Assembly (NCBI GenBank): GCA_964572155.1
Contig: CAZNDZ010000002.1
Coordinates: forward strand, 83,089-147,088
Reading direction: 5' to 3'
Length of the DNA: 64,000 nt
From: an uncultured Planctomycetales bacterium
GTDB lineage: Bacteria; Omnitrophota; Gorgyraeia; Zapsychrales; Fredricksoniimonadaceae
Shown here: positions 7,889-61,419 of the stretch, piece by piece
Layout of the letters: each line of letters opens with the position of its first letter
How positions within the stretch are numbered: the stretch's first letter is position 1
Program-made: the position numbers and the translations under genes
The notes under the pieces: generated by a model
Databases searched by the model: none
Seen by the model: the letters and a program-made list of their open reading frames with translations, nothing else
What the model was told of the DNA's origin: nothing

Positions 7889-9289
7889 TTAGGAGTTTGT
7901 GGCAAGAACTTCCGCTTTAAGAACATGCGGTGTGGCGTCTGTGATACGGACCTTTAAAAATGAGCCGACTTCATAATCACCCTCAGGAAAAGTGACCAAT
8001 TTTCCACCATCATTACGGCCAACTTTATCACGCAGACTGCGAGGATTTGTTGGGTTTTCAACCAAAATGGTATGCACTTCACCAATGTGTGCTTTATTTT
8101 TCTTTAAAGTAATTTCCTTTTGAATCTCATTTAAACGCATGATGCGTTCTGTTTTCTTCGCCTCTGTTACATCATCCGGAAATTTCTTCGAAGCAATAGT
8201 CCCTTTTCGTTCGGAATACTTAAACATAAACGCCACATCAAACTCCACCTCTTTGATAACCTTAATGGTGTCTTCAAACTCATCGTCAGTTTCCGTCGGA
8301 AAACCAACAATGATATCGGTGCTTAAGATAACGCCTGGGATACGATCGCGCATTTTTTGAGCTAGACTCAAAAATTCTTCTTTTGTATATGTTCGATTCA
8401 TCACATCTAATATGCGGTTGTTGCCTGCTTGCAATGGCATATGCATTTGTTTACAAATCTTGGGATTGTCACGCATGAGCGCAATAAATTTATCTGGAAA
8501 ATCTTTAGGGTGTGGCGACGTAAAACGAATGCGTTCGATCCCTTTAACACGACTTACCGCATCCATCAAATCCGCAAAATCACCTTCTTCATGACGATAG
8601 GAATTTACATTTTGGCCAAGCAAGGTCACTTGTTTAAACCCTTGAGCCGCGAGCCCTTCAACTTCTTCAATGACATTTGAGATGGACCGACTGCGTTCTC
8701 GCCCACGCGTATACGGCACCACGCAAAACGTACAAAAATTATTACACCCACGCATAACCGCAATCCATGCATTTATCCCATCTTTACGACTAGGCGTCAC
8801 ATCCGAATACGTCTCAAATTCTGACAAGGTCACATCATAAGGCTTCTCACCTTCACCCACAGCCTCCCGAATCAAATCCGGCAACCGCTTATAACTATCC
8901 GGCCCCGCAATAAAATCAATCTTCAAACTACGATCCTCAAAAATCTCCTGCCGCAAATTAGTAGCCATACATCCCAAAATACCAATAAGCACCGGCTTAT
9001 CCCCTCGATCATGCCGTAAATTATGCACCCGCCCATAAACCTTCTGATGCGCCTTCTCCCGAATAGCACACGTATTAAGCATCACAATATCCGCATCCTG
9101 TTCCTTAGACACGAATTCGTAGTTTTCTTTACGCAAAATAGAACGTACGAGCTCTGAATCATACTCGTTCATTTGGCATCCATAGGTCTCCAAAAGCACG
9201 CGCTTTCCAATTGAGGAAGATTGCGGTTTTTGTTCTGGATTTCCGACTGTGTTGCCGTTGTTTGTGGTCTTTTGTTGCTGTTCTTCCAT
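7889..9289 (-). CDS. miaB: tRNA-i6A37 methylthiotransferase MiaB (radical SAM)
   Basis: UPF0004 N-domain TYGCQMNEYDSE, radical-SAM CNNFCTFC and a TRAM C-terminus. The first 30 aa (Q/N/T-rich) overlap the recombinase ORF in another frame. An alternative GTG start at 9199 would give MLLETYGCQM. Confidence 0.85.
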   Translation of the reverse strand: MEEQQQKTTNNGNTVGNPEQKPQSSSIGKRVLLETYGCQMNEYDSELVRSILRKENYEFVSKEQDADIVMLNTCAIREKAHQKVYGRVHNLRHDRGDKPVLIGILGCMATNLRQEIFEDRSLKIDFIAGPDSYKRLPDLIREAVGEGEKPYDVTLSEFETYSDVTPSRKDGINAWIAVMRGCNNFCTFCVVPYTRGRERSRSISNVIEEVEGLAAQGFKQVTLLGQNVNSYRHEEGDFADLMDAVSRVKGIERIRFTSPHPKDFPDKFIALMRDNPKICKQMHMPLQAGNNRILDVMNRTYTKEEFLSLAQKMRDRIPGVILSTDIIVGFPTETDDEFEDTIKVIKEVEFDVAFMFKYSERKGTIASKKFPDDVTEAKKTERIMRLNEIQKEITLKKNKAHIGEVHTILVENPTNPRSLRDKVGRNDGGKLVTFPEGDYEVGSFLKVRITDATPHVLKAEVLATNS

Positions 9290-10920
9290 TTTAGCCCTTC
9301 ATCGTAGCTAGTCTGCCACGGTTCATTTAATTCAACATTAACAATACGCTGATCCTGAATGTAAACCGCCTTAAACACAATCCGCATAAAGGTTTTAATT
9401 AAAAAACTTGTTCCTCCGAAGCCATCATCCGCTATTTCATGGTTTGGCGAAGGAGAATCAGCTTGCTCATTATCCTGAAATTTTCGTAAATGTAAAAGAA
9501 AATCCTCGGTGGCTCGGTTTAAATTAATGGCGTTTCTTTTGTCTAAAATCCTAAGCTGAACACCTTTAATATCCTGCCTTAACTTCTTCTCCTCATTACG
9601 CAAAAGCTCGGCGCGGTCTTTGTAAATCTCCAGATTAATGCTGTCCTGCGTAAAAACTTCAAACAAACCTTTTTGCTTCTCAAGGTTTTTATTAAGAGCC
9701 TTTGTCAATACTTCCAGCTCATCTAAGAACACCTGCTCCGGCTGGGAGGCATTAAGCTTAACCATGTCGCCTAATTCTTCAAGGACATGCAAGTTTTGGC
9801 ATACCACATCAATAATATCCCAGACCTGTACGCTTATCACATCCGCTGACACGCTTGGATTATGGCACGTTAAATACGAAACCCCTTTGGATGAACAGCG
9901 ATACCACGGGCGCTTGACCTTGGTGCGGTGATTGGTAATCGACATGATGCCACGAAAATTACCACCACACTCCTTGCATTTTAGCACACCGGACAAGTGG
10001 TAATTATTGTTCTTAAATTTCACCACCGCATTCTTGCGATTGCGTTTAAGCAAGACCGCGGCTTCATCGAATTGTTTCTGGCTGATGATAGGCTCATGGA
10101 CATTGGGCACTTCAACAATTTTAGAAGTATCATTGGCGATATATTTATAGCCATTACCTTGACCATCTTTTGTTTTTGCTCTTGGATCATAACGATGGCG
10201 GTTCCAAACCAACATCCCTAAATACACCTTGCTCTTTAGAATGGTGCCAATAAATTTCGTGTAGAATCGCCCGCCCTGACGGGATGATGTTCCTAGACGA
10301 TAAAAATGACCGGCAATTTGCGAGGTGCTTTGGCCGTTGATATAACGCTCAAAAATTTCTCTAACAATCTTGGCTTCCTCCTCATAAACCTCCAGCTTCT
10401 TAATGTCTTTATTGTAGCGATAGCCATATGGTGCATAACGCGCCCCCTGCCAATGGCCTTTCTTAACACCCACCAGCATCCCGGGAAAGACACGCTCAAC
10501 CAAACGATTGCGTTCAAACTCCGCGCAAGAGCCCAGCATTTGAATGGCCATCTTGCCAGCACTGGATGTTGTATCAAAAGGTTCAGTCGCTGATTTATAA
10601 CCAACCCCTAAATTATCCAATTCCTCAAGCAAACCCAGAAGGTCTTTGAGCCGACGGCTTAAACGATCTTGTTTATACACCATCACCAAATCAAACTGTT
10701 TATTGCGAGCATCGAACAACAACCTCTGCAAAGCAGGCCTGTCCATATTCCCTCCAGAAAAGCCGTCATCCATGTAAATATCCTTACCCGGCAAGGTGCA
10801 AACAATTGTCCAGCCAAGATTCTGGGCATATTGCACCAAAAACGTGCGTTGCACCTCGAGTGAAAAACCTTCGCGGGCTTGGTCTTCTGTACTGACTCTG
10901 GTATATAAAGCGACTCTCAT
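9169..10920 (-). mobile_element. Large serine recombinase (resolvase/invertase N-domain + recombinase domain + Zn-ribbon/coiled-coil); island integrase
   Basis: MRVALYTRVSTEDQ catalytic Ser motif (start chosen at the internal Met). Recombinase domain and CxxC...C zinc ribbon (CKECGGNF...C) are present. The C-terminal ~90-aa tail may be non-coding read-through into miaB. Confidence 0.85.
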
Positions 10921-10955
10921 GTTCATTTGGCGGGAGTATACCTTGCATTCCCGCA

Positions 10956-11201
10956 TTATTCAAAGCCTTCTTGAGCTTTCTTGGCTAAAAACATTCTAGT
11001 TAATATTTCAATACCATCATCAAACGACTTTCGCGCCTGAGCGATTTCCCCCTGAGACAAACCTTTAGCCTTGAGCTTTATTTCTAAAGCATCCCAGCCA
11101 CGGGGTTTTGATATTGCGTCATTATTTATAATTGAGTCACTATTCATAACAATAAGAAGGTGTGCGGAGGAAGACACAAGGAGGGATCTTCTGTTATGCA
11201 C
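10956..11201 (-). CDS. Small hypothetical protein, possible HTH/excisionase-like regulator
   Basis: Sits immediately upstream of and abutting the recombinase gene. The segment GLSQGEIAQARKSF resembles an HTH turn. Function not supported further. Confidence 0.35.
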   Translation of the reverse strand: MHNRRSLLVSSSAHLLIVMNSDSIINNDAISKPRGWDALEIKLKAKGLSQGEIAQARKSFDDGIEILTRMFLAKKAQEGFE

Positions 11202-12701: not shown

Positions 12702-12989
12702 CTACGAAACCTTGCCCGCCAACTCTAAATACCTGGCAACCACAGCCCGTTTAATAGATTCCCCCGCATCCCTGCTGATTGGATGAACACAGCTAATCCT
12801 TTTACCATTAGGAAGCACTTTGTCCGGGTAAACCAAACGGAAACCATCCTCCGTTGTAAAAGAAGAATAAACAGCGATGTTGCCTATATAGATTTGATTG
12901 TTGATGACAAAAGAAGCGAAAGCAACAAGCCCATTTTGCGGCTTAACTGGCAGGATATTGATTTCATTAATGTCGAGCGTATTCATCAC
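12702..12989 (-). CDS. SpoVG-like nucleic-acid-binding protein
   Basis: 95 aa, alignable by eye to B. subtilis SpoVG. Shared blocks are I/V-x-V-x-x-x-G-x-x-A-x-AS-x-x-x-x-x-x-x-x-I-x-x-I-x-V, then G-F-x-x-x-P, then HPI-x(4)-R-x-x-I-x-x-AV-x-x-Y-x-x-L. Confidence 0.6.
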   Translation of the reverse strand: MMNTLDINEINILPVKPQNGLVAFASFVINNQIYIGNIAVYSSFTTEDGFRLVYPDKVLPNGKRISCVHPISRDAGESIKRAVVARYLELAGKVS

Positions 12990-13079: not shown

Positions 13080-13772
13080 CTAGGCTATTTGTTTGAAGCC
13101 ACCCTCGATTAATTCAATGCTGTTTTCTAAATCCCTTTTGGCACGTCTACGCGCATAATGCATGCCATGTGATGAAATATAATGTTTATAAAATTTCTTT
13201 GCCAAATCATCCAAACCCACACCTTCTACGTACTGATCATACACATTCAAATAATGCTTAAACTGCCGGGGAAGCACTCTCGGCGTTACCTTTTGCTTTG
13301 GAAATGTCTTTTCAATTTCCTTCAACCTTTTCTGCCATCGATCCACCATTAAACTGAACTCATCACAAATCTTTTGCTTGGCCAAGCTCATGTTGACCCT
13401 GATCTCAAGAAACCTGCCATTGGTAAAAACATCCCTGTCATTAAGCAAATCCGGATTATCAAAGCAATCAATGGCATTCGCCTCAACCAATAGAGCATCA
13501 ATATAAAGAGTTTTTGTTTTTCGGTCACTCTCAATAAGCTCTTCAAATGACATCGATGGCGGGATAGGGTTTAATAAACCCCATTTGGATAAAATCTTTA
13601 AGGCTTTGTCTTTTTGTGATTCAGGATGAGAATTCTTAATAAGATCAACGATGCGGAGTTTTCGTACGATAAAAATATAATCGTCCATATATTGGACATT
13701 TCGCCTGAGAAATTCCCAGCGATACTTTAAGCAATTTTTCTCACGCTTTGTCAGTAAACCAACTCGCAACAC
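13080..13772 (-). CDS. Hypothetical protein (230 aa)
   Basis: Intact ORF. The N-terminal LTKREKNCLKYRWEFL may be an HTH-like segment. No assignable domain. Confidence 0.45.
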   Translation of the reverse strand: MLRVGLLTKREKNCLKYRWEFLRRNVQYMDDYIFIVRKLRIVDLIKNSHPESQKDKALKILSKWGLLNPIPPSMSFEELIESDRKTKTLYIDALLVEANAIDCFDNPDLLNDRDVFTNGRFLEIRVNMSLAKQKICDEFSLMVDRWQKRLKEIEKTFPKQKVTPRVLPRQFKHYLNVYDQYVEGVGLDDLAKKFYKHYISSHGMHYARRRAKRDLENSIELIEGGFKQIA

Positions 13773-13825: not shown

Positions 13826-16800
13826 CTATAGAATACTCACAAATTCAGCTACAACACGAAAATCATCACCAGAAACGTTTTCGATCACAATATCTTTAAA
13901 ATCTTTATTATCCGGCGATAGAATGATCCGCTTGTGCCTCCACTGATCATCACCTAAATCTTCCTTCTCGCTGTGATAACGTTTAATGGTATAACTCTTC
14001 TGAGTTTCGGGGTCTTTAACTAATCGAGATTCCACAAGAAAAATACCAATACGTGAACCTCCGCGATCAAAACGGAACAAGCACCAGCTGCCGTCTTTAA
14101 TGGTAGGTTCCATTGATTTTCCAAATACCTGCGCGATGAACATATGCTCACCAATCTTACGCCCATGCATCGGCTTCCACCCGATAATTTCTTGCGTTAA
14201 CTGTTCTCCAAAGTCTGTCGCTACTGCCTGCAAGTCATAAACGGGAAGATACCCCTGTTCAATTGTCGCATCGGGAATCACATCCTTAAAAAACAACGGC
14301 TTATCATCCTCAACCTTTTGAAGGCGTCCATAAACACGCTTTAATAAATAATCTTTTACAACCGCACTAAAGGCTTTATCACCTGTGATCTTATTGAAAA
14401 TATCTTGATTCTGATCCATCCGCTCAACTAACTTATCCATAAACACATCATCAAATCCGTATTTGAAATTATCAATAGAATTGCTCTGGGCTTGCATGCC
14501 AAGGCGCTCATCTAAGACCATTTCCTCCTCAATTTGATCAAAGAAAAGCTTATCTGCTTCCGTAAAATCTGTTCCGAATCGATCATTAAGAAGATTAATT
14601 ATTTCAGATAATTTTGCGTATTCGTCCTTATCCTTCTTCGTGCCCGCCTCAGACAATGGCTTGATTGCCGCTCCTGAATCCTTTTCTAAAGCAATCTTGC
14701 CCTCTGCAACTTTCTGCAAACGGTAATACTGAATAGCAACCTCATCACCCAAATTGTATCTTGGCCCACGATTTGGCCCCGGTAATTTCTTTAAAAGCAA
14801 ACGGCCATAGGCATAAAACTTTTCTAAATCAACATCTTGAAACGGCATAATTTGCGCTAAGAATGCATAAAGCCTGACAAAAACTCCAAGCGTATTAATA
14901 AAATCGTCTTTGTGTTCATCCTTATCAATTGTTTCAAAACGTGTCACTGCCACATCAATTAACGCATTTAACTGGGCATGTTCCTGTTTATTGTGCTGTT
15001 CTTTATTCTTAAAGAATACGGTACAAAATGCATCCACATCTGATGGATAAATGATTTTAAATGAATCAATCTTAGTCTTTAAATCGTAGAGCTTATTGGG
15101 ATCTGTTGTCTCTGTTAATTGCGTTTGTTCATAATATGGTTGGAATGCCGCTAAAATATCCTCCCGGCTATTTACAAAATCTAACACGAAGGTATCTTCC
15201 TTACCCGGACAAGTACGATTCAAACGGCTTAATGTTTGTACAGCCTTAACACCATCAATACGTTTATCTACATACATCGTATGCAACAACGGCTCGTCAT
15301 ATCCTGTCTGATACTTCTCAGCTACTAAAAGAATTTGATACTCTGAAGAAGAAAACTTCTCCGGCAATTCTTTCTCACCAAAACCATTCATCTTGGGCTC
15401 TGTGTATTCAGGCGGTACACCATCCAATAAAACAGTTCCAGAGAAAGCCACCAAAGCCTTGATATCCCGATAACCTTTTTCTTTTAAATAACGATCAAAC
15501 TCTTGCTTATAGCGAACCACGTGCTCACGGGAAGCTGTGACAACCATGGCCTTGGCTTTACCGCCAATCAACTTCATGGTTACCTGCCTAAAGTGCTCGA
15601 TGATAACCTCTGTTTTCTGGGCTAATACATACGGATGCATTGTTGCAAATCTAGCAATAGCGGCCGCGGCTTTCTGCTTATTTAGCTGAGGATCATCTTC
15701 GATCTTTTTGTTTAACTGGTAAAAAGACTGGTAGGTGGTGTAGTTGTCTAATACGTCCAAGATAAAACCCTCTTCAATGGCTTGTCGCATAGAATACAAA
15801 TGAAATGGCACCGGCTTCCCATCCGTACCCTTTTGACCAAAAGTCTCAAGTGTCTTAGCCTTAGGTGTTGCCGTAAAAGCAAAGAAGCTTAAATTCGGCT
15901 GAGGCCCTCTGGCACGCATGACCTCACGCAAACCATCTTCAATATCATCTTCATCGCTGATCAATAAAACCCTTTTCAAATCAGCGGCAGATTCTCCCCC
16001 TTGCGAACTATGTGCTTCATCGACAATAACCGCATAATTACGCTTAGCTAACTTCCCAACTTTCTCAATAACAAAGGGAAACTTCTGTAATGTGGTGATA
16101 ATAATATTTGTGCCGTTGGTCAACGCATTGGCCAACTGCTCAGAATTCTGGTCAATCTTTTCAACCACCCCGCTTCTATGCTCAAACTGATAAATAGTCT
16201 CTTGCAATTGCTGATCAAGCACTAGCCTGTCCGTCACCACAATCACCGTATCGAATATGCGCTTATCCTCTTGATCATGGATCCCCGCCAAACGGTAAGC
16301 AAGCCATGCAATTGAATTACTCTTGCCGCTTCCAGCGCTGTGTTGAATTAAATAATTTCTTCCGGCACCATTAGCCTTGGCATCAACAGCTAATTTCCTC
16401 ACCACATCAAGCTGATGATAACGAGGAAAGATCATGGTCTCTTTACGGACAGTACGATTATCCATGCGGATTTCTTTTGTTTCTAAATGCATGAACCGAC
16501 CCAAGATATCCATCAGACTGTCTTTAATTAAAACCTCTTCCCAAAGATACGCTGTCTTATGCCCACTTGACGGAGGATTTCCTTTGCCCTTGTTATGCCC
16601 TTTATTAAACGGTAAATAATACGTTCGGTTTCCTTGAATACGGGTAGTCATATAAACCTCATCCGTATCAACAGCAAAATGAACCAAAGCACGCTTTTTA
16701 AATTGGAATAACAAATCCCTCTCATCACGGTCATATTTATACTGTCGTTTGGCATTTTCCACATTCTGCCCCGTGAATTGATTCTTAAGCTCTAATGTCA

Positions 16801-17248
16801 CCACCGGCAGACCATTAACCAAAAGGACAATATCAACTGAACGCTCATCTTTTTCACAAAAGTGAACCTGACGGGTAACATTAAGAATATTTTGGTCGTA
16901 TAATTTCTGAGTTGTAGGATTAAGCCCGCTGACAGGCTTAAAGTAGGCAAGGGAGAACTTCTTGCCGTAGTCAGTAATTCCATAACGAAGACAGTCCAGC
17001 ATACCGCGCGTTTCCAACTCCTGATTCAGCCGATAAAGAAACTTCTTCTCTACCTCCGCACCATGAATACCAGCCAAAGCATCCCAAGCATCTTTTTGTG
17101 TCGTTTTAATAAATTTGAATAGCTCCTCTTTATCAATGCACATAAGACGATCGAAATTAGCTGAATCTCCTTTTATGTAACCACCACGGTCGATCAGACT
17201 TTGCTCGATTGCTTCTTCAAATGCTTTTTCATTTGTTATTGATGACAT
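13826..17248 (-). CDS. hsdR: Type I restriction enzyme R subunit HsdR with C-terminal LexA/UmuD-like S24 peptidase domain
   Basis: Motifs: N-terminal nuclease region NGLPVVTLELKN, SF2 helicase motif I GSGKS, DEAH box VIVDEAHSSQG and motif VI QTLSRLNR. The C-terminal ~150 aa carry the S24 signature YLPVYDLQAVATDFGE...GKSMEPTIKDGSWCLF...YTIKRY (Ser/Lys dyad positions conserved). Confidence 0.85.
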   Translation of the reverse strand: MSSITNEKAFEEAIEQSLIDRGGYIKGDSANFDRLMCIDKEELFKFIKTTQKDAWDALAGIHGAEVEKKFLYRLNQELETRGMLDCLRYGITDYGKKFSLAYFKPVSGLNPTTQKLYDQNILNVTRQVHFCEKDERSVDIVLLVNGLPVVTLELKNQFTGQNVENAKRQYKYDRDERDLLFQFKKRALVHFAVDTDEVYMTTRIQGNRTYYLPFNKGHNKGKGNPPSSGHKTAYLWEEVLIKDSLMDILGRFMHLETKEIRMDNRTVRKETMIFPRYHQLDVVRKLAVDAKANGAGRNYLIQHSAGSGKSNSIAWLAYRLAGIHDQEDKRIFDTVIVVTDRLVLDQQLQETIYQFEHRSGVVEKIDQNSEQLANALTNGTNIIITTLQKFPFVIEKVGKLAKRNYAVIVDEAHSSQGGESAADLKRVLLISDEDDIEDGLREVMRARGPQPNLSFFAFTATPKAKTLETFGQKGTDGKPVPFHLYSMRQAIEEGFILDVLDNYTTYQSFYQLNKKIEDDPQLNKQKAAAAIARFATMHPYVLAQKTEVIIEHFRQVTMKLIGGKAKAMVVTASREHVVRYKQEFDRYLKEKGYRDIKALVAFSGTVLLDGVPPEYTEPKMNGFGEKELPEKFSSSEYQILLVAEKYQTGYDEPLLHTMYVDKRIDGVKAVQTLSRLNRTCPGKEDTFVLDFVNSREDILAAFQPYYEQTQLTETTDPNKLYDLKTKIDSFKIIYPSDVDAFCTVFFKNKEQHNKQEHAQLNALIDVAVTRFETIDKDEHKDDFINTLGVFVRLYAFLAQIMPFQDVDLEKFYAYGRLLLKKLPGPNRGPRYNLGDEVAIQYYRLQKVAEGKIALEKDSGAAIKPLSEAGTKKDKDEYAKLSEIINLLNDRFGTDFTEADKLFFDQIEEEMVLDERLGMQAQSNSIDNFKYGFDDVFMDKLVERMDQNQDIFNKITGDKAFSAVVKDYLLKRVYGRLQKVEDDKPLFFKDVIPDATIEQGYLPVYDLQAVATDFGEQLTQEIIGWKPMHGRKIGEHMFIAQVFGKSMEPTIKDGSWCLFRFDRGGSRIGIFLVESRLVKDPETQKSYTIKRYHSEKEDLGDDQWRHKRIILSPDNKDFKDIVIENVSGDDFRVVAEFVSIL

Positions 17249-17257
17249 ATATACCTA

Positions 17258-17989
17258 TCACTGAGATGCGTTCATAATTTCGTTTGAACTTAAATCAAAT
17301 CCTTCTTCTTGCAATCTTTTACAAAGCTTAGGAATTATCTCTCGAATATGAGTGTTATATCCATATCTAATGATGCCTTCCAAATCAGATGGCAACTCTA
17401 AGTGCCCCTTGACTATAATTGCCATGCGATTTCTTGTCAAAGAAGACAACAACATTCCTGTCTCAAGAATTACATTCTGTCGGGTTCGTGGTTCAGCTTT
17501 ATCAGCGCCGTCCTTAAGCGCATATCCTACGTCATCAGGCGTCATTAAAACAATTCCAAAATCTGATGAATAATCCTTCCCAATTCTACCTTCTAAAGCT
17601 TCAATAATAGTTTTACCTCCGCCACTACTATTCATCAAAATAAACGGTTCCAAATTTAACCGATGCAACGCAAGTTCCAACTGATCTCTTGCTTCAACAT
17701 CATGACCATGCACAATAAAAATCTGTTTCTTAGAAGAGCCGCCTTGTGACGTTCCATTCCCAGCAAACAAATCATGCATCCTCTTTTTTGCATCATCATT
17801 TCCTTGAAACTGTATCGTCTTGTTTGATGACCACCAATGAAGGATCCCTCCATCTTTGGCGCGGAATGAATACTTATCTCCTGATTGAGTCCAGGATCCT
17901 TCAATAGTCATAAAGATTGACTTTAATTGATCAATACTACCGTTATATTTATCAGCCATTAACAATCTCCTTTTCAAAACGAACATCAA
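17258..17989 (-). CDS. TIR-like domain protein (Cap12/PycTIR-type, COG4271-like) with ~80-aa N-terminal domain of unknown function
   Basis: KQIFIVHGHDVEARDQLELALHRLNLEPFIL...GKTIIEALEG...DFGIVLMTPDDVG...RTRQNVILETGML...RMAIIVKG...ELPSDLEGIIRYGY matches the conserved blocks of the CBASS/Pycsar-effector TIR-like family. It lies between hsdS and hsdR and overlaps the hsdS stop. Confidence 0.65.
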   Translation of the reverse strand: MMFVLKRRLLMADKYNGSIDQLKSIFMTIEGSWTQSGDKYSFRAKDGGILHWWSSNKTIQFQGNDDAKKRMHDLFAGNGTSQGGSSKKQIFIVHGHDVEARDQLELALHRLNLEPFILMNSSGGGKTIIEALEGRIGKDYSSDFGIVLMTPDDVGYALKDGADKAEPRTRQNVILETGMLLSSLTRNRMAIIVKGHLELPSDLEGIIRYGYNTHIREIIPKLCKRLQEEGFDLSSNEIMNASQ

Positions 17990-19301
17990 TCTTTCCCGTC
18001 ACTGCTTCTGAAATTAACGCAGTGCGGTATTCGTTCAACAGCTCGATAGACCTCTGTTCTAGAACAATCTGCGCATCGATCTGAACAGTTTTTTTATCTA
18101 AAAAAGATGCTATAGCTTCTTGTTCTTTTTTGGGTGGAATTAAACATATAGAATTGCTTAAAGCATAATTGCTCAATCCATATCTTGTAACGCCAGACGC
18201 TTCAATTCTAAACTGATAATTAATACAATCTGCAGACAAGACCCAGAACAGATATTTTCCTTGGATCAATTGTTCTTTGGGGCGCACTTGAGCCAGATGA
18301 TAGCCACATATTAAATTTGGCTCTTCAAAGGACACATACGCAGGAATAGCAATATCGCTCCATTCTTCAGAATCTTTAGTTAGCAAAACATCCCCCACCT
18401 TTAAATGAAACTTTACAATTTCATCTGCTGAAGCTGTAGCATCCATAAAATCTAAATCTGGCGTAATTAAATCGTTATAATAAACATCAACGTAATTACA
18501 AAGTCTTACAGCTATCTCGCCTTCTTCGGATTTCTTGTTAACATTGCTAAACTGAACCTGTGCATTAAATTTCAACTTCTTAATCTCCCAATGCTTCGGA
18601 ACCTTACCTAACCATTCAATACCAGAATCTTTCATCTCAGCTTTGGGATCAATCCCTTTGGTCACTGTTTGATTAATTACTGCCGCACGCTCCTCTTTAA
18701 GAAGCTTAATCATCTGCTCCTTTTTGGTAATCAGGTCGTCAATCTGTGCAGTATTATGATCAAGAAATGCGGAAATACATCTTTGTTCACTTATATCATC
18801 CGGATACCAAATCGCTATATCTGCCAAATCTGAAGAATTAATTGCCGGATAGCTCACACCAACCGATAAGGCGCATATTCGATCAATGATCTTCTCGCTA
18901 CGTAAAATATAATAAATAAATTTTGGTTCAAGCTTTGATCCAGGAGTCACCACAGCAAAACCGGTTGAGACGATAAAATCATTCACGTCCTCTTCGAAAT
19001 GAGCAATGGCTTTTAAATAAGTTCTGACTGTGGAAACAATTGAATCACCTTTTCTTACAATTCTTCTAGCTCGAGAAGGCGCGTTTAGAAAATTAACTTT
19101 CTCCGTAATGCTATAACCCTTCTCAAGATCAACATTTCCTATGTCAATATAGTTAAACTCGTAGCTTCCATCAGTTTCCTCGCCCAAAGCAAGTTGATTG
19201 ACGCGTGAAACATATTTAATCTTTTTTATCTTCCAAATTTCAGGAATATTCCCAATCCATTTAATCCCTGAATCTTTATATGCTGGATAATACTTAAACA
19301 T
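17952..19301 (-). CDS. hsdS: Type I R-M specificity subunit HsdS (two target-recognition domains)
   Basis: 449 aa with duplicated TRD architecture and conserved HsdS repeat regions (e.g. the conserved spacer helix LLKEERAAVINQTVTKGIDP). Confidence 0.8.
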   Translation of the reverse strand: MFKYYPAYKDSGIKWIGNIPEIWKIKKIKYVSRVNQLALGEETDGSYEFNYIDIGNVDLEKGYSITEKVNFLNAPSRARRIVRKGDSIVSTVRTYLKAIAHFEEDVNDFIVSTGFAVVTPGSKLEPKFIYYILRSEKIIDRICALSVGVSYPAINSSDLADIAIWYPDDISEQRCISAFLDHNTAQIDDLITKKEQMIKLLKEERAAVINQTVTKGIDPKAEMKDSGIEWLGKVPKHWEIKKLKFNAQVQFSNVNKKSEEGEIAVRLCNYVDVYYNDLITPDLDFMDATASADEIVKFHLKVGDVLLTKDSEEWSDIAIPAYVSFEEPNLICGYHLAQVRPKEQLIQGKYLFWVLSADCINYQFRIEASGVTRYGLSNYALSNSICLIPPKKEQEAIASFLDKKTVQIDAQIVLEQRSIELLNEYRTALISEAVTGKIDVRFEKEIVNG

Positions 19302-20235
19302 AAGCTAGTCCCAGATCAGATGTATCCTTCTTAAATGGCTTTTGCTGATGAATCAAAACATGCCCATTTTCTAATGGAATTTTAATCTTCCTTAGCTCAA
19401 CGCGCCAATCCTGATATTCCTTAACAATATTCTCGACCCCAGCATGTTCATTAAAAATAACCTTATCTTCAGCAGACTGAACCATCAATCGGTTAAGCAT
19501 TTCAACGCCTTGCGGTTTTATTGCTCCCACACTGTCACTTTGGCGCGGCTCTGTGTCATGTAAAGGATGAATAATTATTGCTAAACGTGGAGTTATGGGG
19601 CAATACAAATCACATTGATTAGCGTTCCAATATTGCAAACAAACTGGATTATCGCTAGTCAAAAATTGAACAGGTGTTTCATTCTTAAATACAATCCATG
19701 GCGATGTAGCTAGGAGATTTTGAACGCCAATCAAAGCATTAATCCCCAATGCCTGTGGAAATGCTTGCTTGATGAGAGCCTTGGTTCCTCCATGCTTACG
19801 AATTGTTTCTATTGCTTCACGATGCTTTGAATTAGGATCTGATAATTCTTTCTCTTCCAATTTATCATACAAATGCTGAACAATATGCGAAAGGCCACCA
19901 ACACCCAACCTCACAGCCGTTGGAGTGCAGGCTCTTAGATAAGCAAGGTACCCAGCTATTAAATGCTTTGTTGTTGCGTCATATATATTCGTAGAAATGC
20001 TATTAACACAATCAGTCCATTTAGGTTCGACGATCTTAAGAAAATCCTCAACAGCTCTTGGATTATCTGGAAAATATTCGTTTGAACTCCAGTCCACTTC
20101 ATAACAGATTGACTTTATTGGAATAGCATTTTGTCGACTTAAGTTGCTTTTTCGAAAAACATTAATAAAATCAGGGTTGCTAGTCAGTCCAAATCCCCTC
20201 AAATATGTTTGAGCGACATAATGATCTTTAGCCAT
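19294..20235 (-). CDS. DUF4238 family protein
   Basis: N-terminal HYVAQTYLRGF matches the DUF4238 signature (HYVPQFYLxxF). The gene sits between hsdM and hsdS. Confidence 0.6.
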   Translation of the reverse strand: MAKDHYVAQTYLRGFGLTSNPDFINVFRKSNLSRQNAIPIKSICYEVDWSSNEYFPDNPRAVEDFLKIVEPKWTDCVNSISTNIYDATTKHLIAGYLAYLRACTPTAVRLGVGGLSHIVQHLYDKLEEKELSDPNSKHREAIETIRKHGGTKALIKQAFPQALGINALIGVQNLLATSPWIVFKNETPVQFLTSDNPVCLQYWNANQCDLYCPITPRLAIIIHPLHDTEPRQSDSVGAIKPQGVEMLNRLMVQSAEDKVIFNEHAGVENIVKEYQDWRVELRKIKIPLENGHVLIHQQKPFKKDTSDLGLAYV

Positions 20236-20833
20236 TTAGAACCTCTGAATTCATCTTCCCGATCCAAGCATGTAACGCGTGTTTTATTTCGTCGGTAGTC
20301 ATACCTTTCATTCGAAATATTTCTTCAATTATATCCTCTGCAACAGTCAAGGTTTCAACCGCCACAGTTTTATCTAATTTCTCATAAGCCGAAATATCTG
20401 GCATGCCTTGAATTTGAATACCAGGTAAATTAATGGTCTGATGGGTGCTTTTAAAATGCATAAGCTTGTTCCTTAAATTCTTTAATTTCATAAACCGCTG
20501 ACCTACCCCCTCACTAAGATCAATCTCCTTATCAAAAAACCTCTTCGGCCATGTTTTAATTTTGCGGTCTAGACTCATATTTTCATCAAGATCTTTAATC
20601 GTTTGATCGCTACAACTTGAGCAGTGAGCCTCTCCAGCCAAAACCCTGAAATACATGTTAAAAAATGTTTCAACAATAGCTACGCTCATAAACACGCAGG
20701 GCAATACTTTTCGTTGAAGATTTGTATCGTCTCGCTCGACCTGAACTTCTTGCACCATTTCGCGCAAGCATCCAAAGTATTCCCAAATCATTTTATTCGG
20801 CGAACCAAAATGTGAATTAGCTGCATTATTCAC
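20228..20833 (-). CDS. Hypothetical protein, candidate HEPN-domain (RNxxxH motif)
   Basis: 201 aa, mostly helical by composition. KNLRNKLMHF contains an R-N-x3-H HEPN-type motif. The assignment is inferential. Confidence 0.4.
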   Translation of the reverse strand: MNNAANSHFGSPNKMIWEYFGCLREMVQEVQVERDDTNLQRKVLPCVFMSVAIVETFFNMYFRVLAGEAHCSSCSDQTIKDLDENMSLDRKIKTWPKRFFDKEIDLSEGVGQRFMKLKNLRNKLMHFKSTHQTINLPGIQIQGMPDISAYEKLDKTVAVETLTVAEDIIEEIFRMKGMTTDEIKHALHAWIGKMNSEVLNG

Positions 20834-22835
20834 CTAAAACTTCTCCCAATAGCCCTTCAGTTTCTTTTTCTAAAGCCAAAATATCTTTGCGTATCTCATC
20901 AAGACTACGTAATGGCTTATATTTATAGAATTCCTTCGTGAAATTGATTTCATACCCGATCTTGTCCTTGCTCCTATCCATCCACGCATCAGGCACATGA
21001 GGCATGACCTCACGCTTAAAATACTCGTCAATATTATCGGACAGCGGAACATTCTCCGCGTCGCGCAATTCCGCATCAGCTTCTGGCTTGCCTTCTTTAT
21101 CCAGACAAATCTCCGCTGTCTCATCCCTCTGGGAAAGAACCTCAAGGATGGATTTCATAACAGGCGCTTTGATCTTCAATCCAGCCTTATCAATGGCCGC
21201 ATCTATGATTGCTATAAATTTTTCTCGGTTATTATAGGTCTTGGCGCTATCCAATCCATTGAGCATTGCTTTAATCGCCTTCTGTAAAGCTTCGCCCTCC
21301 TCAATTTCCTTAATACCTTCCTTGCCCTTCTTCTTGGATTTGGCAAGATTAACAAATCCTGACTGCTGATCCAATAAGGCTATTCTTTCTGGGGATACCT
21401 GAAAACTCAATCGAAGCGGCCGCTCGACTGTCACACGGGTATAACCAAAATATTCATTGGGGAATATCTTGCAATGCTCTCCAGCTTTAAATTGTCCATA
21501 TATCTTTGTGATTGTCCCGATATGATCCTCGGCTATTTCATTACGTTTATTACCGAGGCTTCTGGCCATCTTCTTAAAGAAACCAACCCCATTGATAAGC
21601 TGAATCTTTCCTTTTCGATCTTTAGCTTTACGATTAGTAACAATCCAAATATAAGTTGAAATGCCTGTGTTATAAAAAAGCTGATCCGGCAAAGCAACAA
21701 TTGCCTCTAACATATCATTCTCAATAATCCACCTACGTATCTCACTCTCTCCGCTACCAGCTCCACCAGAAAACAAAGGCGAACCATTAAAAACAATCCC
21801 TAAACGAGCACCACCATTTTCCGGACGCATTTTGGAAATCATGTGTTGAAGAAACAAGAATGATCCATCGCTTATGCGTGGCAATCCAGCACCAAAACGC
21901 CCGGCGTTTCCTAACGTTTCATGCTCCTTCAGAATTTCACCCTCTATCTTCTTCCACTCAACACCAAAGGGAGGGTTGGAAAGCATGTAATCAAACTTCT
22001 CGTCCTTGAGCCCGTCTTGAGTAAAGGAATTACCAAACTTAATTTGATCTGGATTCTGTCCCTTAATAAGCATGTCGGAATTGCATATCGCATATGACTC
22101 TGGGTTAAGCTCTTGTCCAAAAACACGAAGGCTTGCATCAGGATTTAATTCACGCAAATATTCCTCTGCAATGGACAACATCCCACCCGTTCCGCAAGCC
22201 GGATCATAAAGCGTCTTCACAATTCCCTTTTTGGTTAATACTTCCTTGTCATTTAAGAAAAGAATATTAACCATCAGACGAATAACTTCACGCGGGGTAA
22301 AATGCTCCCCTGCCGTTTCATTGGAAAGGTCAGCAAACTTACGGATCAACTCCTCGAAAATGTAACCCATTTCAATATTGGGGACGACTTCAGGATGGAG
22401 ATCAACTTCAGCAAACCGTTTTATGATTAAGAAAAGGAGGTCGGATTTATCAAGCCGTTCAATATGATCTTCAAAATTGAAATGATCAAGAATATCCCTG
22501 GCATTTTTAGAAAAACCAGCAATGTAATTGCGGAGATTAGCGGCAATATCGCTTGGGTCAGCAACAAGCTTCTGGAAGTCAAACTTGCTTTTGTTGTAAA
22601 ATGTTAGTTTTGCCTTCTTTTTTAGAACTGTTTCAATTGCTTCAGGCGATAACCCTTTGGTCTGCGGTAAATATTCCAAGACAGTTAATTTTGTTGGCTC
22701 TAATACGCAATCCAAACGGCGCAACACCGTGAGTGGTAAAATTACCTTCCCATATTCAGATTGTTTATAGTCTCCACGAAGCAAATCCGCGATGCCCCAT
22801 ATAAAATTTGCACGGTCTTTAAAATTATTAGCCAC
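20826..22835 (-). CDS. hsdM: Type I R-M N6-adenine DNA methyltransferase HsdM (long form, 669 aa)
   Basis: HsdM N-terminal domain, AdoMet motif I (DPACGTGG) and catalytic motif NPPFG (LSNPPFGVEW). C-terminal extension present. Confidence 0.9.
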   Translation of the reverse strand: MANNFKDRANFIWGIADLLRGDYKQSEYGKVILPLTVLRRLDCVLEPTKLTVLEYLPQTKGLSPEAIETVLKKKAKLTFYNKSKFDFQKLVADPSDIAANLRNYIAGFSKNARDILDHFNFEDHIERLDKSDLLFLIIKRFAEVDLHPEVVPNIEMGYIFEELIRKFADLSNETAGEHFTPREVIRLMVNILFLNDKEVLTKKGIVKTLYDPACGTGGMLSIAEEYLRELNPDASLRVFGQELNPESYAICNSDMLIKGQNPDQIKFGNSFTQDGLKDEKFDYMLSNPPFGVEWKKIEGEILKEHETLGNAGRFGAGLPRISDGSFLFLQHMISKMRPENGGARLGIVFNGSPLFSGGAGSGESEIRRWIIENDMLEAIVALPDQLFYNTGISTYIWIVTNRKAKDRKGKIQLINGVGFFKKMARSLGNKRNEIAEDHIGTITKIYGQFKAGEHCKIFPNEYFGYTRVTVERPLRLSFQVSPERIALLDQQSGFVNLAKSKKKGKEGIKEIEEGEALQKAIKAMLNGLDSAKTYNNREKFIAIIDAAIDKAGLKIKAPVMKSILEVLSQRDETAEICLDKEGKPEADAELRDAENVPLSDNIDEYFKREVMPHVPDAWMDRSKDKIGYEINFTKEFYKYKPLRSLDEIRKDILALEKETEGLLGEVLGE

Positions 22836-23596: not shown

Positions 23597-24220
23597 TTAT
23601 ACGTCAAGAACTACTGGTTTATTCACCAGCTTATAATCCTCATTCAAAACTGAACAGTTGATATACGTCGTATCCTTGGTTTTCTCAACACCATACCCGC
23701 CATGGATATGACCACAAATGACATAAGGAATCTTTAAACTATCAATTTTCTTGAGCAACGTCTTACTGCCTAAATGATCCCCGCCTGGACGGGCTGTGTC
23801 CTGATGGCCAAAGGCCGGGCCGTGGGTCAAAAGAATGTCTGTTTTCTTTTGAATCTTGCTCCAATGGTACCGATCAAGGTTCTCCTCTGATTCCATGAAT
23901 GCCCAATTCAAGAATATCGGCGTCATGGGTGAACCCCAGATGGTCATGCCATTGGGTAAAACATATGGCTCGTCCTTTAAGTACACCGCTTTCGTTAAAT
24001 AATTCTTAACCTGTTTTGGAAACTGCTCACAATAAAAATCATGGTTACCTGCTATCGCAATAATATGCTCAAATTTAAGACCCAATAACCAATCGTTAAA
24101 ATGAATAACATCCATCACATGACGAAACTCGCCGTCACCCGCGAAAATAAGCACATCACCTTCCGGAAGCTTTACATTGTGATGCTGTGTATGTGTGTCG
24201 GCAAAGGCAACTATTCTCAT
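23597..24220 (-). CDS. Calcineurin-like metallophosphoesterase
   Basis: MPE motifs present: AFADTH, GDGE, GNHD, THGP, GHIHGG. 207 aa. First gene of the co-directional block that continues into hsdM. Confidence 0.8.
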   Translation of the reverse strand: MRIVAFADTHTQHHNVKLPEGDVLIFAGDGEFRHVMDVIHFNDWLLGLKFEHIIAIAGNHDFYCEQFPKQVKNYLTKAVYLKDEPYVLPNGMTIWGSPMTPIFLNWAFMESEENLDRYHWSKIQKKTDILLTHGPAFGHQDTARPGGDHLGSKTLLKKIDSLKIPYVICGHIHGGYGVEKTKDTTYINCSVLNEDYKLVNKPVVLDV

Positions 24221-24456: not shown

Positions 24457-25332
24457 TCAAGCCAATTCAAGTCGCTGGAACCGTTCGATTAAAAGTTTAT
24501 CAAAATCTTGAGCAAGACCTTTAGGAAGCAAAGACTCCGCAAGTTTTGAACGAAGCATTTCTTTCTGCCCAATGAACTTCGCGAATCGAATCTTTTCTGG
24601 AATGCCTAAATACTCAGCGAGAAGGTCCATGTCCTTCCTTTTGAGCCGACTCTTTTTCCCCTTAATAGTCAATGCGGATTCGTCTGCCTCTTCTGGAATC
24701 ACAATCCTTGAGCAAACCAAATCGTAAGCAGGCGCAAGGCGTACCAATCCTTCTTCATTATAAATAACTGAATAATTCTTCATATGCGCATCACCATTAC
24801 CAATCAAGAAATTAAAAATAACGCGTTCAAAGAAAAGCTGGACGTCAAGCCCGGGAACCTCGGATGCTTCCTTTAACTTTCGGCCAATCTCCTCGACAGA
24901 GCCGTTATATTTATCTTTTTTCTCAAGGATTTGGGCAAAGTCTTCTTGATGAATCTTGCGACGCCCCTCGCGGTCAAAACGCTTGACCACATAAGCTAAA
25001 CTTTTATCTTTCAAATGCACCAGACAATGCGGTGGAACATCGATACCTAAATCTTGGGCAAACGTCATGCAAAGATCTTCATTTTCAGGCAAGTTCGCAA
25101 ATGCCTGCACCTGTGGTTTTAAAATATATTGTCCACCTTCACCGGTGACTTCTAAACGAGGCTCATTATCTTTATCAGCAAGTCGCACAGAAAGTTTTGG
25201 CTGAACGCCTGAAATAGACATTTTACCAACCATCTCTTGTGCTTTAAGAGAAACGCCAGCCAAGGTCAGATCAATAAAAGGCTCTTTATCAATGCCAAAA
25301 ACTTTACGCCATGACGCTTGTTGGTTTTTCAT
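24457..25332 (-). CDS. hipT: HipT-like Ser/Thr kinase toxin (HipA kinase core without N-subdomain)
   Basis: Gly-rich loop MSISGVQPKLSV carries the S-I-S autophosphorylation motif. Catalytic region GNGDAHMKNYSVIY is present. 291 aa. Confidence 0.8.
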   Translation of the reverse strand: MKNQQASWRKVFGIDKEPFIDLTLAGVSLKAQEMVGKMSISGVQPKLSVRLADKDNEPRLEVTGEGGQYILKPQVQAFANLPENEDLCMTFAQDLGIDVPPHCLVHLKDKSLAYVVKRFDREGRRKIHQEDFAQILEKKDKYNGSVEEIGRKLKEASEVPGLDVQLFFERVIFNFLIGNGDAHMKNYSVIYNEEGLVRLAPAYDLVCSRIVIPEEADESALTIKGKKSRLKRKDMDLLAEYLGIPEKIRFAKFIGQKEMLRSKLAESLLPKGLAQDFDKLLIERFQRLELA

Positions 25333-55486: not shown

Positions 55487-57474
55487 ATCAACTGTCTTTC
55501 AATCATTTTCATATCGGTAATGGGTAACCCACAAACGCCTTGTTTACAAATTTGAACGGACCAAGGATCCATGCTTGGCTCACGTTTAATGCTCAAATTT
55601 GGCTTGAAGCATTTATACACTATATTTTGAATAGAGACAAGTTCTTGAGGTGCAACCTTCCCTCGTATGGTTACTTGCAATGGACCTGCAACATGCATCT
55701 GTAAGGCTTGTAGGAAATAGGTATATCCTTGTGGTGCTTTTAGGACAGTAGGTAAGAATCGTTTGAAAGTCTTTATAGCCACATCTTGATAGGTTGTCTT
55801 ATCGGTTAAAAAGAATAATTTCATCAAAACAACAGCTGCCACTGAATTTCCAGAAGGCATGGCTCCATCGTAAATCTCAACTGGACGCACAATTAAATCA
55901 TTGTTTTCTGGTGACATAAAAAATCCACCGTGCTGATCTTCAAAATGCTGCACCATATAGTCGGTTAGCACTTCTGCTTGTTGCAGGTATTTTTGATCAA
56001 AGGTGGCTTCATAGAGATGCACTAGCCCTAAAGCAAGATATGCATAATCATCCAACATAGCTGTGATACCTGCCACATTTTCATGCCAACGGTGCTGTAA
56101 CATACCATTTTTATACATATTGTCTAAAATATAATCAGCAGCTTTGGTAGCATGATCTATATAGCGTCTATCATTTAGCACCAACCCACCAAATGCGAGT
56201 GCCGCGATCATTAAGCCATTCCAGTCGGTTAAGACTTTGTCATCAAGGTGCAAGGCCATGCGACCGCGTCTAAAGGATAATAATTTTGCTTTAGCCTGAT
56301 CCATCATAACCTGATGCATTGGATCAAGAGGCCTTGTTTGAAATAAAATGTTTTGACCTTGAAACTCACCGTGGGGGTCATGATCAACATTACCTTGTGG
56401 TTGCACGCCATAATACATAGCAAAAACATCGGCGGTGGCTTTGTCTAATTGATCGTAAATTTCCTTATGCGTAAAAACATAATACGCCCCTTCTTGGCCC
56501 TCTGCATCGGCATCGTAAGCACAATAGAAAACACCTTCTTTGCTCGTCATATCAGATAAGACATAATCCATGATTGATCGACATACGCGGGCATATAATG
56601 GATCTTGAGTTATTTGAAAACATTGGGCATAAGCAAAAACAAGCAGGGCTTGATCATAAAGCATTTTTTCAAAGTGTGGGATTTGCCACGCCGCATCGGT
56701 TGCATAGCGATGAAACCCTGAAGCAATTTGGTCATGTATCCCACGAGCTGACATGATGGTTAGTGTCTGTTCTACCTGTGGCAAGGTGGGCTTATCTGAC
56801 CCGTGCATGGATAATAAAAATGATAGTGTGTGCCCCATAGGAAACTTAGGCGCATGTGAGAATCCACCATTTTGTTGATCAAATTGTGAGGCAAGATTTG
56901 TGACAGCGACAGTTAATGCTTTTGAATCAATGACAGCGATTGGCGATGATGCCGCCATGGATTGTTGCAAAATCAAGAGCAATTCTTGAGAAGATGTGGT
57001 GATCCCCGCCTGATTATGATCCCATGCATCGCGCATCGATAAGAGCACATCATTAAATGCCGGTGAACCCCATTTTGCTATTGGGGGGAAATATGTGCCT
57101 CCATAAAAAGGCTGACCATCTGGTTTTAAGAAAACAGATAAAGGCCAACCACCTTGACCGGCAATAGCAATCACCGCATTCATATAAATGTGGTCAATAT
57201 CTGGCCGCTCTTCACGATCAACTTTAATGGCAATAAAATACTGGTTTAAAATATCTGCGGTTGATTGATTCTCAAAACTTTCATGTGCCATGACATGACA
57301 CCAATGGCATGTGGAATAACCAATCGAAAGAAAGATTGGTTTTTGTTCTTTAACAGCCTTCTCAAAGGCTAATGGGCCCCAAGGAAACCAATGGACAGGA
57401 TTTTGAGCATGCTGTCTTAAATAAGGACTATTCTCTGCAGCTAGATGATTAATTGCCATTCGAAGGTAAATCAA
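55483..57474 (-). CDS. Thioredoxin-domain protein YyaL (DUF255 + six-hairpin glycosidase-like domain)
   Basis: N-terminal thioredoxin-like [16 protein letters not shown], conserved [10 protein letters not shown] and C-terminal (alpha/alpha)6 region. 663 aa. Confidence 0.8.
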
Positions 57475-61414: not shown

Positions 61415-61419
61415 AATCG

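Follow-up and report, generated by a model that had tools for sequence, protein, structure and literature searches.

The HsdR subunit of a Type I restriction system, encoded in the 64,000-nucleotide stretch of DNA analysed here (the window), ends in a domain of about 165 residues that is, on the evidence of profile matches and a predicted fold, a complete LexA-type (S24) module; that the module cuts itself is an inference. The module also caps many other classes of restriction enzyme, and its portability suggests an undescribed proteolytic switch controlling DNA-cutting defence enzymes. An earlier note on this DNA had described an HsdR-S24 fusion. The fusion is real, but it is not limited to HsdR. 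Full-text literature searches found no description of fusions between S24 domains and restriction enzymes, which agrees with the note's impression that such a fusion is uncharacterised. A paper on His-Me finger enzymes was considered as a prior description and rejected, as its only reference to S24 concerns neighbouring signal peptidases.

The C-terminal module of HsdR

The complete hsdR-S24 open reading frame (1140 aa plus stop codon, from the ORF list and its translation) lies at 13826–17248 on the minus strand. The accessory module occupies residues 976–1140 at its C-terminal end (13829–14323, minus strand) and comprises a linker, a cleavage-site region and the catalytic core, as assigned with PF00717, hhalign, AlphaFold2 (AF2) and Foldseek. 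The earlier note had placed an S24 domain at 13826–14296, a span that encodes residues 985–1140 and the stop codon. The translation contains the C-terminal sequence that it quoted, and the PF00717 match, the alignment with LexA, the AF2 model and the Foldseek search all support this assignment. The PF00717 match that it had proposed to look for in the C-terminal domain was obtained with an isolated 174-aa segment (29.1 bits, E 8.5e-7) and exceeds the gathering score of 23.3; the whole protein scored 22.9 bits, slightly under that threshold. The same profile matched 64 of 66 representatives of the module family.

The divergence of the family defeats plain sequence searches, and hhalign and a fold search were needed. 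A phmmer search with the 174 aa gave no match among PDB sequences, and a profile of close relatives reached LexA only marginally (E 0.99). With hhalign, a family profile of 192 modules aligned to residues 74–181 of E. coli LexA (probability 95%, E 4e-8). The AF2 model of the module, built from a 75-sequence alignment (pLDDT 91.0, pTM 0.84), supersedes a poor model made from 32 close relatives (pLDDT 63.6). When this model was compared with the PDB in Foldseek, ranks 1–39 were all LexA, lambda cI or UmuD (probability 0.99–1.00, target-normalised TM up to 0.69), and the top matches included the cleavable form of LexA (1JHE) and LexA bound to the RecA filament (8TRG). NCBIfam and PADLOC contain no model for the module. 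The upstream 975 residues gave no Pfam match to the winged helix LexA_DNA_bind, and the protein is therefore an S24 domain protein and not a LexA orthologue.

The HsdR core (residues 1–975; 14324–17248, minus strand) was delimited by Pfam, TIGR00348 and PADLOC matches and by the end point of unfused orthologues. It consists of a PD-(D/E)xK nuclease (D...ELK), an SF2 motor (GSGKS, DEAH) and a C-terminal helical domain, with Pfam matches to HSDR_N (4e-16), SWI2_SNF2 (7e-26), ResIII and T1R_D3-like and a match to PADLOC REase_I at 1.6e-41. TIGR00348 is matched at 4e-62, and since its score (210.7 bits) falls below the curated cut-off of 284.55, this HsdR represents a divergent subfamily. The first gene of the operon is hsdM (669 aa; 20826–22835, minus strand; N6_Mtase 8e-61, HsdM_N 7e-28). 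It is followed on the same strand by hsdS (449 aa; 17952–19301, minus strand; Pfam Methylase_S in two stretches) and by hsdR, with three extra genes interleaved. Its domain set and the co-encoded hsdM and hsdS qualify the protein as a Type I R subunit. The system sits on a mobile island adjoining a large serine recombinase.

A read-through, an assembly chimera or a decaying, functionless fusion was considered as a rival, and in the NCBI annotation of some MAGs the module does appear as a small 'S24 family peptidase' in its own right. Such entries are nonetheless in-frame parts of uninterrupted HsdR ORFs, as was found for two of them. Seven contigs, drawn from three independent data sets (NCBI and two Logan runs), encode the identical 1140-aa protein (P0121), and related fusions with intact ORFs are present at more than 500 genome loci; the fusion is therefore not a product of chance. 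We regard an artefactual origin as refuted.

Catalytic dyad and cleavage-site region

The predicted nucleophile Ser1045 (GKSMEP; 14114–14116, minus strand) aligns with LexA S119 and UmuD S60, and the predicted general base Lys1089 (YTIKRY; 13982–13984, minus strand) with LexA K156 and UmuD K97. The Ser/Lys dyad that the earlier note had inferred is thus matched to that of LexA by hhalign, and the motifs it had named can all be located: the upstream strand, which reads LPVYDLQAVATDFG, the nucleophile motif G1043-K-S1045-M-E-P1048, the turn D1052-G-S and the lysine motif T-I-K1089-R-Y. The spacing from Ser to Lys is 44, close to the 43 of cI. Lys1089 is conserved in 99% of the 192 aligned modules. 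The Ser1045 column is 100% conserved in the same set, a figure biased by the extraction of these modules through the motif G.SM.P, which fixes the serine; without this bias, Ser is lost in 2 of the 142 representatives inspected. Because the dyad is conserved, we reject the reading of the module as a dead pseudo-protease.

E. coli LexA (MEROPS S24, PF00717) and the module share the fold, the dyad, the cleavage-site loop and the motifs L-x-P-x-N and R-N-G, at a sequence identity of about 20–25%. Unlike LexA, the module has no winged helix, and a 975-residue restriction nuclease-motor stands upstream of it. It forms the extreme C-terminus of an enzyme, whereas in LexA it is the C-terminal half of a repressor, and it carries two conserved insertions (DPET, and WxH around residues 1096–1105). 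The C-terminal domains of UmuD and lambda cI also have the S24 fold and the dyad; neither protein is fused to an enzyme, cI being a repressor and UmuD being activated by a cleavage that removes a short N-terminal arm.

The cleavage-site region (Y1000-LPVYDLQAVA↓TDFG-1014, the arrow marking the predicted cut; 14207–14251, minus strand) aligns to LexA 75–88, and as in LexA an L-P-hydrophobic strand precedes the site. The predicted scissile bond joins Ala1010 and Thr1011 (codons GCG ACA; 14216–14221, minus strand), and its P1' residue lies 34 residues before Ser1045, which is the distance from G85 to S119 in LexA. The consensus over the 192 modules is LPVYSLKAAA↓GAFG. At P1, 88% of the modules have Ala and 10% have Cys, the very alternation seen in LexA and UmuD, the latter being cut between Cys24 and Gly25; at P1', Gly (63%) is the commonest residue, followed by Thr (26%) and Ser (9%). 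Set against the S24 internal-site pattern, in which Ala or Cys is followed by Gly some 34–38 residues ahead of the Ser, the HsdR of the window keeps the P1 Ala and has Thr at P1' where LexA has Gly. This Ala-Thr pair is a trait of its clade and departs from the family consensus of Ala or Cys before Gly. Thr at P1' in this protein, and Thr or Ser there in about 35% of the family, count against the autocleavage model that we tentatively prefer below. The G85D change renders LexA non-cleavable, and with Thr at P1' this clade may therefore cleave slowly or need another trigger. The linker motif PLFFKDVIPD (residues 984–993; 14270–14299, minus strand) is also clade-specific: it reads LFFSDVIPD in close relatives, regardless of fusion partner, and is not conserved family-wide.

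A role without proteolysis has to be weighed against these data. The module might only dimerise or bind the RecA filament, thereby pairing two motor nucleases for cutting; in LexA and cI the S24 domain is established as a dimerisation domain, and most partners of the module (Type I, ISP, III, IIS and IIG) require two molecules, or collisions, for cleavage. Pure scaffolds normally lose their catalytic residues, but here about 99% of members retain Ser, Lys and the Ala or Cys at P1, and the cleavage-site region is conserved as strongly as the catalytic core. We consider a purely structural role very unlikely.

Distribution and enzyme partners

A survey of HsdR orthologues, which the earlier note had proposed, finds the fusion to be recurrent. 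Orthologues of 74–80% identity occur both with the module (1140–1180 aa) and without it (990–1010 aa). The unfused P0132, P0145 and P0146 stop at the end of the core (residue 975), where the sequence reads ...KDYLLKKVYGRL.... Since such unfused orthologues exist, the core HsdR is complete without the module. On this survey the module is an optional accessory cap, which closely related HsdR proteins appear to have gained and lost.

The module is found at no fewer than 532 species-genome loci, mostly in Omnitrophota, and its hosts are hundreds of mostly uncultured bacteria. The restriction enzymes that bear it are of Types I, ISP, III and IIG; further partners are SLFN-type/DUF2075 helicases, MZB-helicases, and AlwI, LlaJI, HNH and PLD nucleases. 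It stands at the extreme C-terminus in 120 of 130 representatives. In several genomes two different enzymes are tagged, and a Type I and a Type ISP enzyme carry near-identical modules (about 90%). The host, as opposed to the partner, accounts only in part for the similarity between modules, which mostly tracks partner class, with clear swaps between classes besides. Many short database matches raised the possibility of a stand-alone S24 gene family, which we largely reject, because genomic copies of the module nearly always form the end of a large ORF. A scan of 2.9 million viral contigs yielded only 2 loci with the module, which is thus essentially cellular, and on this count we reject a phage origin.

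Conservation of the module is unusually high (55–77% identity across phyla and partners). Near-invariant positions include W1024, the DPET insertion (1079–1082), KRYxSEK (Y1091/S1093/K1095) and the W1103/H1105 insertion, none of which has a counterpart in LexA or UmuD. On sequence grounds alone, these family-specific residues could form a receptor for some signal other than RecA*. Restriction would then be under the same proteolytic switch, and the conserved surface would sense a phage protein, a nucleotide, pH or stress, or the stalling of the enzyme itself. RecA-independent LexA-like proteins do exist, IrvR of Streptococcus mutans being a precedent (PMC7101444). On the other hand, no candidate ligand or partner has been identified, and RecA-bound LexA is among the best fold matches, although this does not discriminate between triggers. 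We view a trigger other than RecA* as possible but unlikely.

Models for the control of restriction

The model we tentatively prefer, which may be correct but to which we would not yet commit, is that signal-triggered autocleavage, probably dependent on RecA*, sheds the module and lowers restriction. Cleavage, trigger and outcome are all inferred, and no experiment supports them; the functional ideas of the earlier note (self-processing triggered by RecA* or another signal, with restriction alleviation or activation as its result) are likewise inference. The module would initially be carried by an otherwise complete HsdR. A cellular signal, most probably RecA-ssDNA filaments during damage or repair of the host chromosome, would move the loop that holds the cleavage site into the active site formed by Ser1045 and Lys1089, and the chain would be cut between Ala1010 and Thr1011. 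The 130-residue S24 fragment would depart and leave an HsdR ending in ...LPVYDLQAVA-COOH, a small hydrophobic C-terminus like that of LexA 1–84, which ends VAA, and of the type that becomes a ClpXP degron after cleavage of LexA and IrvR. The cut HsdR would be degraded and/or deprived of an S24-mediated dimer contact, and restriction would be transiently lowered while unmodified host sites exist, amounting to built-in restriction alleviation. The RecA* and ClpXP steps are inferred without data on RecA or ClpXP in the host genomes.

Precedents exist for parts of this scheme. During restriction alleviation, EcoKI HsdR is removed by ClpXP (PMC11109961), and the ClpXP-dependent alleviation of EcoKI and EcoAI (Types IA and IB), in which proteolysis of HsdR protects the chromosome once unmodified sites appear, serves as an analogy for the role proposed for the module (PMC11109961). 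In contrast to the module-bearing HsdR, where the switch would be part of the enzyme itself, EcoKI HsdR has no protease domain, ClpXP recognises the translocating subunit, and the process does not depend on LexA cleavage. Alleviation of EcoKI is also independent of the SOS response (PMC11109961), and the link to RecA* is therefore not required by precedent. LexA-like proteins carry ClpXP C-degrons that adjoin the autocleavage site and are active only after cleavage (PMC5742171, citing Neher 2003 and Niu 2010); in IrvR/HdiR of S. mutans, autocleavage exposes such a degron and the upstream fragment passes to ClpXP (PMC5742171). These proteins are transcription factors, not enzymes, and are not known to be linked to restriction-modification. 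Because cleavage at any LexA-like site automatically produces a hydrophobic tail, the one predicted here does not count as independent support for a degron. The diversity of partners and the C-terminal position fit a partner-independent mechanism, of which exposure of a C-terminal degron is an example.

Self-cleavage might instead switch the nuclease on. The module would hold the enzyme inactive as a zymogen or timer until a slow spontaneous, infection-triggered or damage-triggered cut activated it, as in the conversion of UmuD to UmuD', and restriction would be delayed after entry into a new host or armed only on infection. The intact protease features are equally compatible with this proposal, HsdR after cleavage would resemble its unfused, presumably active orthologues, the non-canonical Ala-Thr site could set a slow rate, and a delay in establishment would be useful on a mobile island beside a large serine recombinase. 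There are no data on contacts between module and core, however, and an inhibitory domain in a flexible C-terminal position would have to block Type I, ISP, III, IIG, IIS, HNH and PLD enzymes. The need to block such different enzymes makes a zymogen less parsimonious than a partner-independent degron, and we think it improbable. A broader version, in which protease-gated restriction enzymes use a dedicated S24 subfamily, by way of its conserved surface not shared with LexA, UmuD or cI, as a receiver for infection or for a trigger other than RecA* and thereby turn the nuclease on (as a zymogen) or off, seems to us similarly doubtful.

Unmodified host sites arise through DNA repair, through recombination or on transfer into a new cell. 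To our knowledge, how restriction enzymes spare their host when such sites appear has been worked out only in a small number of E. coli Type I systems, in which ClpXP degrades HsdR. The occurrence of the module on Type I, ISP, III, IIG and IIS enzymes and on helicase-nucleases points to a general, enzyme-independent form of self-protection, and control through the module would couple restriction directly to a cellular signal. If true, it would also explain a widespread mis-annotated domain that current records separate out as a small 'S24 family peptidase'. The fusions also show that a LexA-type autoprotease module, its cleavage still inferred, has been taken up by proteins other than transcription factors and UmuD, and the module could supply a compact natural tag for inducible degradation or activation. 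Should protease gating prove true, it would constitute a new regulatory layer of prokaryotic immunity, built on a portable 'cleave-and-degrade/activate' tag.

The C-terminal domain and its predicted cleavage site

The hsdR-S24 ORF (13826-17248, − strand, from the ORF list and its translation) encodes a protein of 1140 residues. Its first 975 residues make up the R subunit of a Type I restriction enzyme (Pfam: HSDR_N, SWI2_SNF2/ResIII/DEAD and T1R_D3-like), in which the nuclease D...ELK, GSGKS and DEAH motifs are legible. PADLOC matches this protein to REase_I at 1.6e-41; its TIGR00348 hsdR match (4e-62) lies under the curated cut-off and it therefore belongs to a divergent HsdR subfamily. The proposal in the earlier note that HsdR ends in an S24 domain, with a Ser/Lys dyad alignable to LexA and UmuD, is borne out. 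PF00717 scored 29.1 bits on the isolated last 174 residues (threshold 23.3, E 8.5e-7) and 22.9 bits in the whole protein. Plain sequence searches of the module (residues 976-1140) against PDB chains were unsuccessful. A profile of 192 family modules matched E. coli LexA 74-181 (probability 95%, E 4e-8) and UmuD 50-124 (E 1e-6); the residue numbering of these two comparison sequences agrees with literature positions. An AlphaFold2 model of the module, computed with 75 diverse relatives, had a pLDDT of 91.0 and a pTM of 0.84. The best 39 Foldseek matches to it in the PDB were all LexA, lambda cI or UmuD, led by 1JHE (LexA, cleavable conformation) and 8TRG (RecA-filament-bound LexA). Profile, dyad and modelled fold place the domain in peptidase family S24, its proteolytic activity being inferred. 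Without a DNA-binding domain, the protein does not qualify as a LexA orthologue.

The family alignment predicts Ser1045 in G-K-S-M-E-P (14114-14116, − strand) as the nucleophile and Lys1089 in Y-T-I-K-R-Y (13982-13984, − strand; 99% conserved) as the general base. Serine occupies the nucleophile column in 192/192 aligned modules, but these were selected by that very motif, so the independent check is the representative set (n = 142), where it is absent from only two. This conservation of the dyad disfavours a purely structural role for the domain, which we consider improbable. The predicted cleavage-site region reads L1001-P-V-Y-D-L-Q-A-V-A1010/T1011-D-F-G (family consensus LPVYSLKAAA/GAFG; the slash marks the scissile bond). 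At P1, 88% of the family has Ala and 10% has Cys, the same two residues as in LexA/cI and UmuD, and P1' is Gly (63%), Thr (26%) or Ser (9%). The distance from P1' to the serine, 34 residues, is identical to that from G85 to S119 in LexA. With dyad, P1 residue, spacing and fold in place, the sequence and structural requirements for LexA-type self-cleavage are present as far as alignment and model can tell; the caveat is that the clade of the window protein has Ala/Thr at the predicted site instead of Ala/Gly, and cleavage itself is inferred. Two conserved insertions set the family apart from LexA, one being D1079-P-E-T and the other a stretch holding W1103 and H1105; W1024, Y1091, S1093 and K1095 are also near-invariant. 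Two proteins, P0355 and P0289, join an HsdS-like or Zn-ribbon N-terminus straight to the second S24 half without the Ser region; recombination scars or chimeric calls are the likely origin of both.

Fused and unfused HsdR and their genomic setting

We surveyed the 120 closest homologues of residues 1-966 (63-85% identity). The fusion recurs in about 50 of them, which are 1140-1180 residues long and carry PF00717; the others have 990-1010 residues and no PF00717. Fused and unfused proteins are interleaved at 74-80% identity, and the unfused ones end at ...KDYLLKKVYGRL plus a few residues, the exact point where the window protein enters the module. Judged from these alignments, the module is an accessory part of HsdR. 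A cleaved HsdR would thus resemble a normal, complete orthologue, with a predicted 35-residue tail ending ...LQAVA.

The hsdR gene is the last of a co-oriented operon (all − strand) that begins with hsdM (20826-22835). Interleaved between hsdM and hsdS (17952-19301), with overlapping start and stop codons (19294-20833), are genes for a 201-aa protein without a family match (20228-20833) and a DUF4238 protein (19294-20235; 2.9e-27), a family that has been reported among the anti-phage genes of P2/P4 hotspots. A CAP12/Pycsar-type TIR protein gene (17258-17989; PF10137 2.8e-30, PADLOC PDC-S35 2e-86) lies between hsdS, whose end it overlaps, and hsdR, so the Type I operon has an embedded candidate abortive-infection effector. 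Upstream are further defence or toxin genes, a PDC-S10 candidate-system metallophosphoesterase (23597-24220, −; PADLOC, 6e-69) and a HipA_C kinase-domain protein (24457-25332, −; 7.6e-50). Directly downstream of hsdR are genes for a 230-aa protein (13080-13772, −), whose weak matches are RovC-like or 'proteobacterial transcriptional regulator-like', and a SpoVG-like protein of 95 aa (12702-12989, −); both are kept beside hsdR in the other contigs carrying the same hsdR. Then come a large serine recombinase (Resolvase, Recombinase and Zn_ribbon_recom; 9169-10956, −) and chromosomal genes, a MiaB/RimO-like radical-SAM methylthiotransferase (7889-9289, −) and NadA; from this arrangement we place the R-M system on an integrated mobile defence island. 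The recombinase ORF overlaps the start of the methylthiotransferase gene by 120 nt, probably the integration boundary of an island of ~9.2-25.3 kb. Such mobility bears on the possibility, to which we give limited credence, that cleavage activates the enzyme or acts as a slow maturation timer, which would benefit an island newly arrived in a host. Elsewhere, the AT skew of 57449-63987 (−) is strong (−0.28 to −0.34, taken on the + strand), and the same stretch holds two very large ORFs (1338 and 855 aa) whose only family match is a weak TPR.

Distribution of the module

At least 532 module loci came to light when one genome per species was scanned. Of the best 80, 32 are from Omnitrophota; the remainder are from Planctomycetota, Bacillota, Nitrospirota, Elusimicrobiota, Desulfobacterota, Acidobacteriota, Actinomycetota and one archaeal MAG. 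Viral contigs nearly lack the module (2 loci). Among the matches listed, almost all complete loci have it at the far C-terminal end of a large ORF, and several genomes have two tagged enzymes. Partners, assigned by clustering and Pfam scans of the parts upstream of the module, comprised, among the same matches, 34 HsdR, 18 SLFN-group-3/DUF2075 helicases, 6 + 2 Type III Res-like proteins, 5 Type ISP enzymes (Mrr nuclease, helicase, coupler, methyltransferase, specificity domain), one Eco57I/MmeI-like enzyme and one MZB-helicase with a DUF559 nuclease. Searched exhaustively with an HMM, 1.84 billion cluster representatives gave 1957 matches at E ≤ 1e-3, 1296 at ≤ 1e-10 and 347 at ≤ 1e-30. Partners in 66 longer representatives were ResIII (18), SLFN helicase (14), Type ISP (11), Eco57I (5), MZB (4), AlwI (2), HNH (2), LlaJI, PLD and one HsdS. 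The module stands at the very end in 120 of 130 representatives, and a few proteins have an extra domain of ~190 aa after it; in the proteins P0300, P0301, P0321 and P0276, exceptions to the C-terminal rule, this domain is conserved and has repeated ...RDxAIRELAxxLGYxRTG... motifs. Module similarity mainly tracks partner class, with clear swaps, for example ~90%-identical modules on a Type I and a Type ISP enzyme.

Annotation pipelines often separate the module as a small 'S24 family peptidase' despite a continuous ORF. Two such NCBI entries, P0012 (140 aa; locus L006, 6001-6555) and P0067 (122 aa; locus L014, 6001-6555), are in-frame C-terminal pieces of uninterrupted HsdR ORFs of 1161 and 1176 aa, so that mis-annotation of the fusion in MAGs is systematic. 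That the fusion is an artefact is scarcely conceivable, being refuted by these uninterrupted ORFs, by the large ORFs ending in the module and by the same hsdR on other contigs. The S24-HsdR fusion of the earlier note is thus real, but its scope was drawn too narrowly: many restriction-enzyme classes carry the module, and the case is broader and better supported than could then be known. By its sequence, the module is an optional C-terminal cap, an intact LexA-type autoprotease (activity inferred) with its own substrate loop, on architecturally unrelated restriction nucleases.

A possible restriction-alleviation switch

The strict C-terminal position and indifference to partner argue for a mechanism without specific enzyme contacts. 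Driven by a signal, the cleavage-site loop would enter the active site; a cut between Ala1010 and Thr1011 would follow, and the S24 fragment would depart. The new C-terminus, ...AVA (...AAA or ...AAC in relatives), would be of the LexA-like C-degron type. In LexA and LexA-like regulators, according to PMC5742171, which credits Neher 2003 and Niu 2010, cleavage bares a ClpXP C-degron directly upstream of the scissile bond. Restriction alleviation of EcoKI rests on removal of HsdR by ClpXP proteolysis (PMC11109961). On these precedents we favour, with slightly less than even confidence, a built-in restriction-alleviation switch, most likely answering RecA filaments; cleavage, trigger and outcome are all inferred. 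If a dimer contact made by the S24 domain were lost as well, this could add to the alleviation. The same switch might answer a non-RecA trigger read by a family-specific surface, which we think unlikely. As a restriction-alleviation switch, the module would be like LexA and IrvR in its inferred chemistry and would fill the role that ClpXP holds for EcoKI.

The functional reading of the earlier note, self-processing of a restriction enzyme, is plausible, with activity inferred. Its belief that the fusion was uncharacterised agrees with our full-text search, which found no paper describing S24-restriction enzyme fusions; prior mention is possible, as many subscription papers lay outside its coverage. 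The module brings known parts together in a new, recurrent combination and implies a new regulatory principle.
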